A DNA stretch of 63,777 nucleotides, filler included, from Sandaracinaceae bacterium (GTDB lineage Bacteria > Myxococcota_A > Polyangia > Polyangiales > JADJQN01): NCBI GenBank assembly GCA_947483975.1. It is 18 parts of 18 records of this genome, joined end to end, with 100 filler letters (N's around TTAATTAATTAA, not from the genome) between each part and the next. Parts side by side here need not be neighbours in the genome. Positions count along the whole stretch, not along the records: positions 1 to 3,570 come from CANKOL010000474.1; 17 more parts are not named here. One strand, written 5' to 3'. Positions 1 through 3,000 of this stretch are shown piece by piece; positions within the stretch are counted from its first letter, which is position 1; every line of letters starts with the position of its first letter. The position numbers are program-made.

Positions 1-3000
1 CGCCGAGCGCTGCGACCGCGTCGTGCGCGTCGTCGACGGGCTCATCGTGAGCGACGGGCCGCCGAACGGCGCCGCGCACGGCTGAGGGCGAGCTCGCGCC
101 CTTTTCCCCTGCGTCAGGGCAGGCCGGGGCCACGGCCGCGCGGGCCGCCCCAAACGGCATGGACGACGAGCGCAGAGCGCTCTGCGTCGATCAGGAAATA
201 CACATGGTGGCGCGTGCGCGGCAAGAGCACGCGGCGGTATTCGCGGCCCCCGCTCGCGTAGGCGACGGACGCGCTCGGCATCGCCGCGGCGAAGGTGAGC
301 ACCTCGGCCAGCTCCCGTGCGAAGAGGTCGGGTGCGTCGCGCCGCTCTTCGCGCCACCAGGCGTCGATCTCGCTGACGTGCCGCTCGGCCTCGAGCGTGA
401 ACTCGACCTTCATTCGCGCGCGCGAAGGCGGGCGAACACAAGCTCCGCAGGGACGACGTGCCCCTCGGCGGCCTGCTGCGCGCTGCGCTCCAGCGCTGCG
501 TCGAGCGCGGCCTTGTCGTCGGGGTCGAGCGCCGCGTCCGAGCCGCACACCAGCTCCGCGAGCGGGACAAGATCGACCACGGCGCCTTCCGGTAGCTCGG
601 TCGGCTCATCGAGCACGAGGCGACCTCGAAGGGAGCGTGCACGAAGCCCAGTCATGGCGAGATGCTGACATGGGCGCCGAGCGTCGGCGAGCGAGTGGTG
701 CCGACCGGGGAGGGCGGCCCGGCTCGCTGACCCGACGTCGTCTACCTCGCCGGGCGCCTGGACGGTGGCCGACCTCGGCGCGGGGGAGGCAGCCGCGCGC
801 TTCGGAGCAGCAGTCCCGGCTTCAGGTGAAGCGCGTCGGCGAGCCGTACGAGGATCGTGATGCTGAGGTTGGCGCTGCCGGTCTCGACCTTCTGGAGGAA
901 GCGAAGGTCCACCGTCGCCGCCTCGGCGAGCGCCTCTTGCGTCATGCCTCGCCGTGCTCGCGCCGCCTTCACGTTCGCGGCGATGGAGCGAAGGACCGAG
1001 GCGACGTGATCGCCAGCCGACATCGTCGCCCGCTGTTAGCCCGTCAGTCGCGAAACAATAACGCCCTAAAAGCACGATTTATCTGGACCGTGTTTTGGGG
1101 ACCGTGTAGTGATTGCGCTCATTCGCGCGTGCCCGATGAGGGGGGCGCGACCCAACCGGACCATTGAAACAAGGAGAACCGAATGACGCTCTCGATCACG
1201 ACCCACAGCTACGTCATCACCTCGGCCTGCACCTGCCCGAAGGGCTCGACAAATGCGTGCGGAGTCAACTACCGCATGGGTTGAGTCGCTGGATGCGTGG
1301 TTCCTACTCCTGAGCGCGTAGCCGGTTTGTGCGGAACCAACCACCTCTCACCTCTCACCTCTCACACGAAGGCCGGGCGGGATGATTGATATGCCTCGTT
1401 TTGTCATTCCGCCCGGCGTCGCTAGCCGTGGCTACACCGTTTCTGATGGGAGTCGTCTCGCCGTCGCCTACAACACGCGGCGGCAGTCGGTGACCACGCT
1501 CGAGGGGGATTCCGCCGAGGTCTACCAGCGCCTCTTCGATAGCCGCGGCGACTCGAGCGCTGCGTTGGCGTATATCGTCGAGCACGGGAGTTTCGGCGAA
1601 GGCGAAGGGGCCGTTGAGGCGGCGGCCGCGACTCTGCAGGCGTTTGCTTCGACGCTGATTGACGCAGGCTATTTGGCTCTCCACGGCGACACGGCAGCTG
1701 TGGCGCGTCAGTCGATCCGCCGCGCCGCCACGGTCGCGACCGCCGCCGATCCTCTCGAGAACGCCGAGATGCACGTCGGGCGGGTCATGGCCGATGCGCA
1801 TATCCTCTACCAGTTGGTGCTCGAGCTGACCCATCGCTGCAACGAGCGGTGCGTCCATTGCTACTGCCCTCAGGGCGTAGGCAGCGACGAGTTGACCGTC
1901 GAGCAGCTCGCGCAGCTACTCGCGGAGTTTCGTGAGCTCGGCGGGTTTCGGCTGCAGCTCACCGGCGGTGAGCTCTTCTGTCGCAAGGACCTTCATGCGA
2001 TCTTCGCGCTCGTGAAGGAGCAAGGGTTCGTCGTCGATGTGACGAGCAACCTGACGCTCCTGACACCGCAGAACCTCGACGCGCTCGTCGCGCTCGAGCC
2101 GCGATCGGTCGGTTGCTCCATCTACTCGGCGGATCCGGCTCTGCACGACGGCGTGACTCAGCTGCCAGGTTCGTGGCGTCGGTCCACGGACGCGATTCGC
2201 GAGCTGAGGTCTCGCGGCATCCCAGTGGTGCTGAAGACGCCGCTGATGAACGACACGCTCGCGGGCTGGCGCGAGGTCGAGGCGCTCGCGCTCGAGCTGG
2301 ACTGCGACTACCAGTTCGACCTCGCGCTCACGGCGCGCAACGACGGTGATGGCGAGCCGATGCGCTTTCGCGCGACCGACCGCCCGGGCATCGAGGACCT
2401 GTTCTCCTCGAGGTACTACCGGATTCGCTTCAAGGACGAGGCAGCACCGCCTCCGACGCAGCCAGACCCTGACGCGATGCTCTGCGGCGCGGGCAGCGCC
2501 GGCCTCATCGTGGGTCCGGACGGAACGATCAGACCGTGCCTCGGGCTGATGGAGCCGCTTGGGCGGTTCCCCTCGGACAGCCTGACGAAGGTCTGGCAGA
2601 AGTCGGAGTTCTTCGAACGCTGGAGCCAGCTGAGGTGGCGCGACAGTGTGCGCTGCGCATCGTGTGCCGACTCTGCGTTCTGCTTCCGGTGCCCGGGCGC
2701 GTGGGAGCTCGAGACGGGCAGCCGGACGAAGCCGCCGGATTACACCTGTATGCTGGCCTCGGCCTGGCGAGCCGCCTGGGAAGCCCAGAATCCGGGGCGC
2801 ACAGCCCCATAATCCGCGCATACTGGCGAAGGCGCCGCGATGTTCGCGGTGCTGAGGAAGGCCTGAGGCGCGATGGCAGACAGCGACGAGCGGGACACGC
2901 TTCCTCCGCCTCCACCTGAGGGGCGCCCGACCGGGCCGCTCGCGGACGCACACGCGCGCGACGCGGCGGCGCAGCGCGCGCACCTGCACAAGGTCGCCGA

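Follow-up and report, generated by a model that had tools for sequence, protein, structure and literature searches.

The locus at 1183–2812 raises the question of whether a 33-residue peptide and the radical SAM enzyme encoded beside it are a RiPP precursor and its maturase and, if so, to which family they belong and what chemistry links them. The window, i.e., the whole stretch of DNA that was analysed, comprises 63,777 nucleotides of a Sandaracinaceae bacterium assembly, and its positions 1–3570 represent one entire assembly contig (CANKOL010000474.1). Both open reading frames named in the survey's finding, the 33-residue peptide at 1183–1284 and the 476-residue radical SAM/SPASM enzyme at 1382–2812, were recovered on the plus strand (Table 1), the enzyme scoring above the cut-off for both Pfam PF04055 (Radical_SAM) and PF13186 (SPASM). 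Our results support the description of these genes as an RRE-radical SAM RiPP pair that is apparently unnamed, based on their co-occurrence, the fold of the RRE, a model of the complex, and the lack of a match to any family or in the literature.

Table 1. Features of the precursor–enzyme locus and of the island that carries it (positions in the window).
Feature	Position	Strand	Basis
Accessory island, ~2.72 kb: TA-like pair, XRE regulator, precursor, enzyme	94–2813	.	Empty-site contig
ParE/RelE-like toxin ORF, probable type II TA pair	114–413	-	Pfam ParE_toxin E = 0.011, below curated cut-off; no NCBIfam match; weak
Small acidic ORF, probable antitoxin	410–655	-	Inferred from position only; overlaps ParE-like start (ATGA); no Pfam/NCBIfam match
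XRE-family HTH regulator, divergent from cassette	742–1023	-	Pfam HTH_3 E = 7e-11
Precursor RBS, AAGGAG	1171–1176	+	Sequence; RBS-like words 5' of 63/73 peptides
Precursor ORF, 33 aa, MTLSITTHSYVITSACTCPKGSTNACGVNYRMG	1183–1284	+	Sequence
Putative precursor leader, residues 1–15; family consensus MKLxxKxxxYxL	1183–1227	+	Alignment and complex model
Putative core: C16, C18, K20, T23, C26, G27, V28, Y30, R31, stop	1228–1284	+	Conservation among 66 peptides
Predicted RRE-radical SAM-SPASM maturase, 476 aa	1382–2812	+	Pfam, AlphaFold2, Foldseek
Predicted N-terminal RRE (PqqD-like), residues ~6–100	1397–1681	+	Fold (three strands then three helices); leader docking in model
CxxxCxxC radical SAM motif, C153, C157, C160	1838–1861	+	Invariant in 111/111
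Seven-Cys SPASM: C368, C386, C425, C428, C434, C437, C456	2483–2749	+	Conservation among 111

The enzyme combines a CxxxCxxC motif and a SPASM domain with a predicted RRE and a conserved adjacent precursor, in line with an RRE-dependent radical SAM RiPP system. Six of the SPASM Cys residues are conserved in all 111 enzymes aligned and C456 in 110 of them; no eighth conserved Cys was found in the linker (residues 314–367). An AlphaFold2 model (pLDDT 90.3) had SuiB, SkfB, TigE, and CteB, all maturases with an RRE, as its top Foldseek matches. The N-terminal domain gave no Pfam PqqD match, and Atlas feature matches to PqqD (0.88–0.89) we take as leads only. The best sequence match among solved structures was the sactisynthase SkfB (E = 4e-22), with CteB more distant (3e-8). 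As the survey had reported, there are 127 homologs, here out of 8000 candidates scored and at a threshold of E ≤ 1e-20, with 42–52% identity among the 120 matches listed. Searching 1.84 billion representatives with a profile identified four full-length matches of 570–640 bits, after which scores fell to ~420 and lower. The close enzymes (defined below) form one clade (SH-aLRT 99 in a quick tree of 55 rows); no close paralog was found in the same genome, and none of 60 related genomes had a close enzyme, the best match scoring 221 bits vs 656 for the 1382–2812 enzyme itself.

Placement in a named family did not follow from any of our searches. The earlier statement that no NCBIfam model comes near its cut-off for the enzyme held (the best scored 87.6 bits vs 500); PqqE and MftC models were among the top matches (83 vs a cut-off of 381 and 73.5 vs 265 bits, respectively), and GeoRSP (65.2/400), ACGX (44/400), and SynChlorMet (71.7/400) were likewise below cut-off, with the precursor peptides matching none of these. 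The StsB model NF045574 gave 43.9 bits vs the 625 required, and the core peptide is not of the form CxCxCx4GxGxG; the SkfB model TIGR04403 gave 35.7 bits vs 300. No SCIFF- or PapB-type model, as would be indicative of ranthipeptides, was among the 25 best of 55 matches, CteB being distant, and for mycofactocin and PQQ the HMM scores were sub-threshold and the terminal Val-Tyr or Glu-x3-Tyr core was absent.

To what extent peptide and enzyme belong together was judged from 157 loci, 77 from genomes and 80 from metagenomes (best 80 of 141 and best 80 of 295 confirmed stretches), of which 91 have a close enzyme (≥37% identity) and 66 a distant one. When peptides were detected with a peptide profile combined with a C-x7-C-[GP] filter, a homologous peptide adjoined 81 of the 91 close enzymes, or 50 of 55 groups formed at 90% enzyme identity. 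Among the ten close loci without a peptide, eight end ≤71 nt from the enzyme and one lacks the upstream flank in which its group keeps the peptide; the remaining one, L146, has diverged leader-bearing ORFs, including one that lacks C18. Narrower filters undercount, as the earlier strict motif retrieved 61 of the 91 close loci and a three-Cys version 70 of 91; between them these two filters also gave one false match, at L084. The survey held that distant loci have no such peptide, and this needs amending, given two strict-motif matches among the 66 distant loci (L035 and L064) and profile matches at eight of them. The family is spread over Acidobacteriota, Verrucomicrobiota, Pseudomonadota, Chloroflexota, and others, and peptide and enzyme move as a pair between unrelated bacteria. 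Viral contigs gave 24 pattern matches with no relative among them, and plasmids only seven distant matches (25–26% identity). Our searches of NCBIfam and of openly available literature text found no description of the family, nor was there any match to short (4–7-letter) family words in the 3,421-precursor table of PMC10288494; six new sactipeptide groups are presented in Figs S26–S30 of the PDF supplement of that paper, which, like subscription papers and figures, lay outside these searches and could bear on the novelty of the family.

The peptide itself is no chance ORF, because a profile built without it recovered it at E = 6e-14 when the genome was searched as 88,871 six-frame segments, with the runner-up at 0.066. 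Across the 5.3 Mb genome there is a single occurrence of the motif C-x7-CG[IV]x[YH]R, and no second precursor was found there. Consistent with what the survey had stated for the single peptide, none of 52 aligned peptides matched an NCBIfam model at E ≤ 10, and an Atlas query with the peptide gave no usable match. Among the 66 distinct peptides, C18 and C26 are present in all, counts that are partly forced by the filter, although no profile match above 15 bits lacked them; G27 is found in 65, R/K31 in 66, and K/R20 and I/V28 in 61 each. Synonymous codon variation is free at C18, C26, G27, and R31 (65 peptides). The "three invariant Cys" of the survey reduce to two, as C16 is present in only 54 of the 66 and the other 12 peptides read G-C-x7-C-G, all with Gly17; nor is the C-terminal Tyr/His invariant, residue 30 being Tyr in 53 peptides, His in three, and something else in ten. 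Given these counts for C16 and Y30, we regard the family signature as two Cys with a Tyr that is frequent but dispensable, and on this sequence basis the defining motif should read C-x7-C-G-x-x-x-[RK]. With their two- and three-Cys forms, the 66 natural precursors represent a compact and diverse substrate series for a radical SAM clade that has no curated model. Placement of the peptide upstream of the enzyme had been thought peculiar to this genome, but it is also seen at L099/L120, L011, and L024. An attenuator or leader-peptide reading of the peptide was dropped, because in most loci the peptide is 3' of the enzyme.

A model of the precursor–enzyme complex scored 0.79 vs 0.09 for the best control; the mark used for such scores is attained by 116 of 157 solved pairs and 2 of 215 mismatched pairs, and the pass may in part reflect likeness to solved RRE–leader complexes, since such complexes exist. 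The model runs agreed in at least 42% of contacts, with a partner pLDDT of at least 52. In the model, leader residues 3–10 contact RRE residues 35–48 and 88–97, pairing with strand 35–40 and helix 84–97 (β3/α3 docking), and peptide residues 16, 18, and 26–28 contact enzyme residues 368–370 and 435–437, which would seat the leader at the RRE and bring the core Cys up to auxiliary cluster I. The spacing of the SPASM Cys residues equals that of the CteB ligands given in PMC10177961 (in part), bar one residue fewer before C437. In CteB and PapB auxiliary cluster I has three Cys ligands and engages the substrate Cys (PMC10177961, in part), whereas the auxiliary clusters of SuiB, anSME, and PqqE are fully ligated, an Asp serving as a non-Cys ligand in PqqE (PMC6231123, in part). 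As non-Cys ligands of this kind exist, seven Cys residues are no proof of an open site. Six catalytic-site-proximity positions, taken from PMC10288494 (in part) and placed on the enzyme by motif, correspond to Y161, T194, T/I221, S246, I/L387, and G388; these residues are Y, T, I, S, K, and L in StsB and F, F, T, S, H, and Q in CteB (same source, in part). Positions 1, 2, and 4 are thus as in StsB, as is position 3 in 27 of 111 enzymes, and positions 5–6 (I/L, G) are unlike those of both; the Y/T/S at the first, second, and fourth positions may be widespread in SPASM enzymes generally.

Based on these matches we consider a sactipeptide-like chemistry, with Cys thioethers, to be likely, and a linkage specifically of the S-Cα type to be a tentative assignment, a little short of an even call. 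The larger reading, of a two-gene thioether RiPP cassette borne on accessory islands, we hold to be fairly probable. In the mechanism we propose, the leader (MKLxxKxxxYxL) would be bound by the N-terminal RRE as an added β strand, as the complex model suggests; SAM cleavage would, as in known enzymes, yield a 5'-deoxyadenosyl radical able to abstract a hydrogen from an acceptor residue within the core, and the thiol of a core Cys, positioned at the open iron of auxiliary cluster I, would then form the thioether. Both C18 and C26 would be required as donors, with C16 as an additional outer donor that can be absent. StsA has links with i+5, i+9, and i+13 spacing and can do without the outermost of them (PMC10288494, in part); by analogy with this spacing the connectivity might be C18–Gly27 (i+9), C16–Xaa29 (i+13), and C26–Arg/Lys31 (i+5).

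The survey had left the choice between a thioether and a Tyr cross-link open; while its undescribed family stands as an unnamed pair, the thioether branch has proved the better supported and is favored here, and the Tyr branch is weakened because ten of the 66 peptides have a non-aromatic residue 30, including those at L089 and L132, whose enzymes are 86–91% identical to those of Tyr-bearing loci. That the enzyme instead forms an aromatic cross-link at Tyr30 or His30 (to Ile/Val28, Arg31, or a Cys) in the manner of PqqE, RrrB-type, or cyclophane enzymes, with the Cys pair serving as a disulfide or metal site, does draw on the conservation of the tail (Tyr/His30 in 56 of 66, with I/V28 and R/K31 as above), on the PqqE and MftC models near the top of the NCBIfam list, and on SuiB coming first in the fold search; the Tyr30 and R/K31 counts indicate that the C-terminal tail matters, and thioethers alone leave it unexplained. 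An aromatic at position 30 is, however, not invariant, as a cyclophane or Tyr-cross-link would have it, the ten exceptions come from several lineages, and the linker lacks an eighth conserved Cys, so that we rate this alternative as quite unlikely. In run X6 one strain allele has Y30C together with four loop changes in the peptide; this also speaks against the aromatic link, but was given little weight because the conserved residues F88 and E182 of its enzyme are altered too and the allele may be decaying.

Thioethers to side-chain carbons, as in ranthipeptides (S-Cβ or S-Cγ of Lys20, a Thr, or Arg31, in small unnested rings), would agree with the CteB/PapB-like SPASM Cys spacing and with the conserved K/R20 and R/K31, and we view this version of the chemistry as unlikely though somewhat less so than the aromatic link. 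It is very improbable that the peptide gives rise to a small redox cofactor or metabolite excised after radical modification, following the logic of PQQ or mycofactocin: the enzyme is in the PqqE/MftC/NirJ sequence neighborhood and there is no exporter, but the terminal Val-Tyr is absent, neither the island nor the set of recurring neighbors includes a peptidase, an oxidoreductase, or any other biosynthetic gene, and the distribution is patchy and mobile.

Returning to the thioether reading, the closest known counterparts are the hairpin sactipeptide systems StsA/StsB and BlaA/BlaB, which have an RRE-dependent SPASM enzyme of the MftC/PqqE neighborhood and a short core with CxC and a conserved Gly whose outermost Cys is dispensable, StsB also sharing three to four of the six proximity residues (PMC10288494, in part). 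However, the StsA core is CxCxCx4GxGxG, whereas the family here has (C)-x-C-x7-C-G-I-x-Y-R with a Cys on the C-terminal arm, and the RRE is fused into the enzyme rather than being a discrete protein like StsC (PMC10288494, in part). SkfB likewise has an RRE fused to the radical SAM domain and Y, T, and S at proximity positions 1, 2, and 4, but it has a Twitch domain where the 1382–2812 enzyme has a SPASM (PMC6231123, in part). The CteB, PapB, and Tte1186 maturases share the RRE-rSAM-SPASM layout and the three-ligand auxiliary cluster I spacing (PMC10177961, in part); they differ in their distant sequences and other proximity residues, and the peptide here has no SCIFF or Cx3D motif. MftA/MftC and PqqA/PqqE are of the same broad SPASM branch and have a Tyr near the C terminus of the precursor, but the family here has neither a terminal Val-Tyr nor an accessory pathway, and scores far below threshold.

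The commonest neighboring gene encodes a family 9 glycosyltransferase (GT9), adjoining 15 of the 55 close groups, four of the eight distant loci with a peptide, and none of 53 distant loci without one. In all 15 close groups it is co-oriented with the enzyme and within 650 nt of it (13 downstream and two upstream). The main clade of these GT9s is small (46 proteins), and as a proxy for co-location 14 of the 46 share an exact contig size with a radical SAM match (chance mean 0.7, maximum 3). A Ser or Thr at residue 23, in the middle of the loop, is found in 16 of 18 peptides with a GT9 vs 3 of 19 without (p = 1e-5), a count that leaves out 21 close peptides with short flanks and a pattern that was spotted post hoc among 25 positions; none of eight other peptide positions reached 0.05 against GT9 presence. 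GT9-bearing peptides without Ser, Thr, or Cys at 23 are those of L128, L076, and L077. With a slight lean in its favor, we suggest that where it is present a dedicated GT9 glycosylates the Ser/Thr (once Cys) at residue 23. The other possibility, that the GT9 is an unrelated passenger of the same islands, concerned with cell-surface glycans, and the residue 23 pattern a product of shared ancestry, we consider real but the lesser of the two: a tree-controlled test was not significant (six independent pairs, 4.2 concordant, median p 0.125), LPS heptosyltransferase models hit every one of the 16 GT9s that were aligned, and the gene is missing from most loci, including the 94–2813 locus; yet the test had no discordant pair, and the consistent orientation and proximity of the GT9 and the small size and co-location of its clade argue against a mere passenger. 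Neither the island nor the 81%-complete assembly yielded a GT9, though the 1183–1284 peptide has Thr23, and its product would then be unglycosylated. In having a glycosyltransferase beside a Cys-containing precursor the GT9-bearing loci resemble glycocins of the SunS/ThuS type, and in the GT9 fold of the partner enzyme they recall the LPS heptosyltransferases WaaC and WaaF. Glycocin transferases are GT2 enzymes, and glycocins are exported. The residue 23 pattern thus predicts a specific tailoring step; among the papers listed by our literature searches, none concerned a GT9 that tailors a RiPP. Together with the Cys thioethers, the action of the GT9 on residue 23 makes for two testable predictions.

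The extent of the cassette could be defined from a contig of run X4, one of four public runs, in which position 93 is joined to 2814 via 153 other letters (depth 12.3); this empty-site allele is represented by a single contig, and the same run has an island-bearing contig at depth 5.3. The right end of the island is one base past the enzyme stop codon, and its GC is 0.675 vs 0.711 for the genome. No exporter, protease, glycosyltransferase, or other tailoring gene is inside 94–2813, and since a co-occurring strain lacks this segment, we regard the cassette as an accessory island without exporter or protease, the precursor and enzyme being the entire unit here; this, like the GT9 partner of many relatives, had escaped the survey. 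The skf operon, in comparison, encodes both a protease and an exporter. Only short chance pieces of a same-genus genome matched the island, and no Rfam match, sigma-70 promoter, above-chance repeat, or direct repeats at the island ends were found. One metatranscriptome gave no evidence of expression, its sole record (151 nt, depth 3) being linked to a different part of the locus. On balance, lacking a conserved exporter or protease, the product would probably stay inside the cell or use host machinery. No exporter or peptidase recurred among the neighbors; a scan of 146 of 258 picked neighbor ORFs detected a single ABC transporter (L105) and peptidases here and there.

A divergent XRE gene precedes the cassette in 12 of 38 close groups but in none of 54 distant loci without a peptide (by a profile built from these same neighbors), and, where flanks are at least 5 kb, 10 of 26 close groups have a resolvase and 9 of 26 an XRE gene, as against none of 53 such distant loci; these contrasts are overstated, as the profiles derive from the neighbors and many positives belong to one acidobacterial clade. 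Defense genes are near some loci, e.g., type III and IIG restriction-modification systems, a SAVED nuclease, HNH, LmuB, and McrBC. In PADLOC searches the best match was at least 200 bits at 4 of 20 close loci vs 0 of 17 control loci (114 of the 140 proteins picked for the controls were covered, with three loci and six proteins left out on account of size). As this contrast fades at ≥100 bits (6 of 20 vs 4 of 17), it is a lead only. For the product itself we lean, at low probability, toward a stress or defense role. Lanthiphages, which set a precedent for such non-exported products, are RiPP clusters on mobile or defense islands, usually without an ABC exporter, for which intracellular action has been proposed; they differ in their lanthipeptide chemistry and demonstrated anti-phage activity, the enzyme here being a radical SAM enzyme and the defense enrichment suggestive at most (bioRxiv 10.1101/2024.06.26.600839, in part). 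We speculate, as an improbable extension, that these are widespread, horizontally moved, intracellular thioether peptides, glycosylated on a loop residue by a recruited GT9 and serving as an island-borne stress or anti-phage agent, the radical SAM counterpart of lanthiphages. The cassette provides a test case for the role of non-exported RiPPs on mobile islands. Genes with DnaJ domains were also seen next to the loci in seven groups.

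On three IncF plasmids from Salmonella enterica and E. coli (L172, L173, and L174), a resolvase gene precedes a distant RRE-like radical SAM/SPASM gene (Table). Between the two genes, L172 and L173 have a 38-aa ORF that carries no annotation and encodes a YSKP leader and a C-x10-C core. The arrangement resembles a sister RiPP cassette of two genes and has no match in NCBIfam. A different small peptide, with a Y-[KR]-[KR]-P leader and a C-x3-C-x10-C-G-H motif, was identified at Bacillota loci with distant enzymes; one of these, L022, as well as L036, contains two radical SAM genes with PqqD domains. 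At two further loci (L013 and L015) a distant relative of the enzyme adjoins a Nif11-type leader protein in place of a precursor of the 33-aa type. Oxygenases and glycosyltransferases (GT9, GT92) are candidates for tailoring functions at distant peptide-bearing loci.

Table. Coordinates of features at loci with distant relatives of the enzyme
Feature	Locus	Coordinates
Distant RRE-like radical SAM/SPASM gene, 24–26% identity	L172	2782–4410
	L173	5392–7020
	L174	5584–7020
Y-[KR]-[KR]-P / C-x3-C-x10-C-G-H peptide	L022	~7499
	L030	~6810
	L062	~7920
Nif11-type leader protein	L013	7187–7564
	L015	4783–5160
2OG-Fe(II)/PhyH-like oxygenases, tailoring candidates	L024	5235–7632
Two tandem GT9 genes and a gene of no assigned function, tailoring candidates	L075	3531–6484
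Same set	L076	
GT9 gene plus GT92 gene on the opposite strand, tailoring candidates	L011	11467–13406

An enzyme (P0086) and a GT9 (P0290) of the cassette family are both labelled Methanothrix, from a contig of 23,351 bases, and may reflect either an archaeal transfer or a mis-binned contig.

DnaJ-domain proteins are encoded 3' of the cassette, downstream of the peptide, in seven enzyme groups (L008, L089, L102, L104, L108, L114, and L117), most of which belong to the acidobacterial clade whose loci also carry resolvase and XRE genes. On the cassette contig itself, the ORF end at positions 1–85 resembles the C terminus of an ABC ATPase; this ORF lies outside the island and is also present in the empty allele, which makes a role as a dedicated exporter unlikely. 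The window consists of contigs joined through N runs with a TTAATTAATTAA spacer (e.g., at 3616–3627); no gene past position 3570 neighbours the cassette.

L147 has a second copy of the precursor at ~2231, L002 a partial tandem duplication of the precursor start (3445–3800), and L146 two diverged ORFs with the leader (3581–3880). The X6 allele, from a public sequencing run, carries 19 substitutions in 185 nt across the promoter and precursor (positions 1087–1271), whereas 1142 nt of the enzyme gene have no more than 8, a clustering suggestive of recombination in patches or of diversifying selection acting on the loop.
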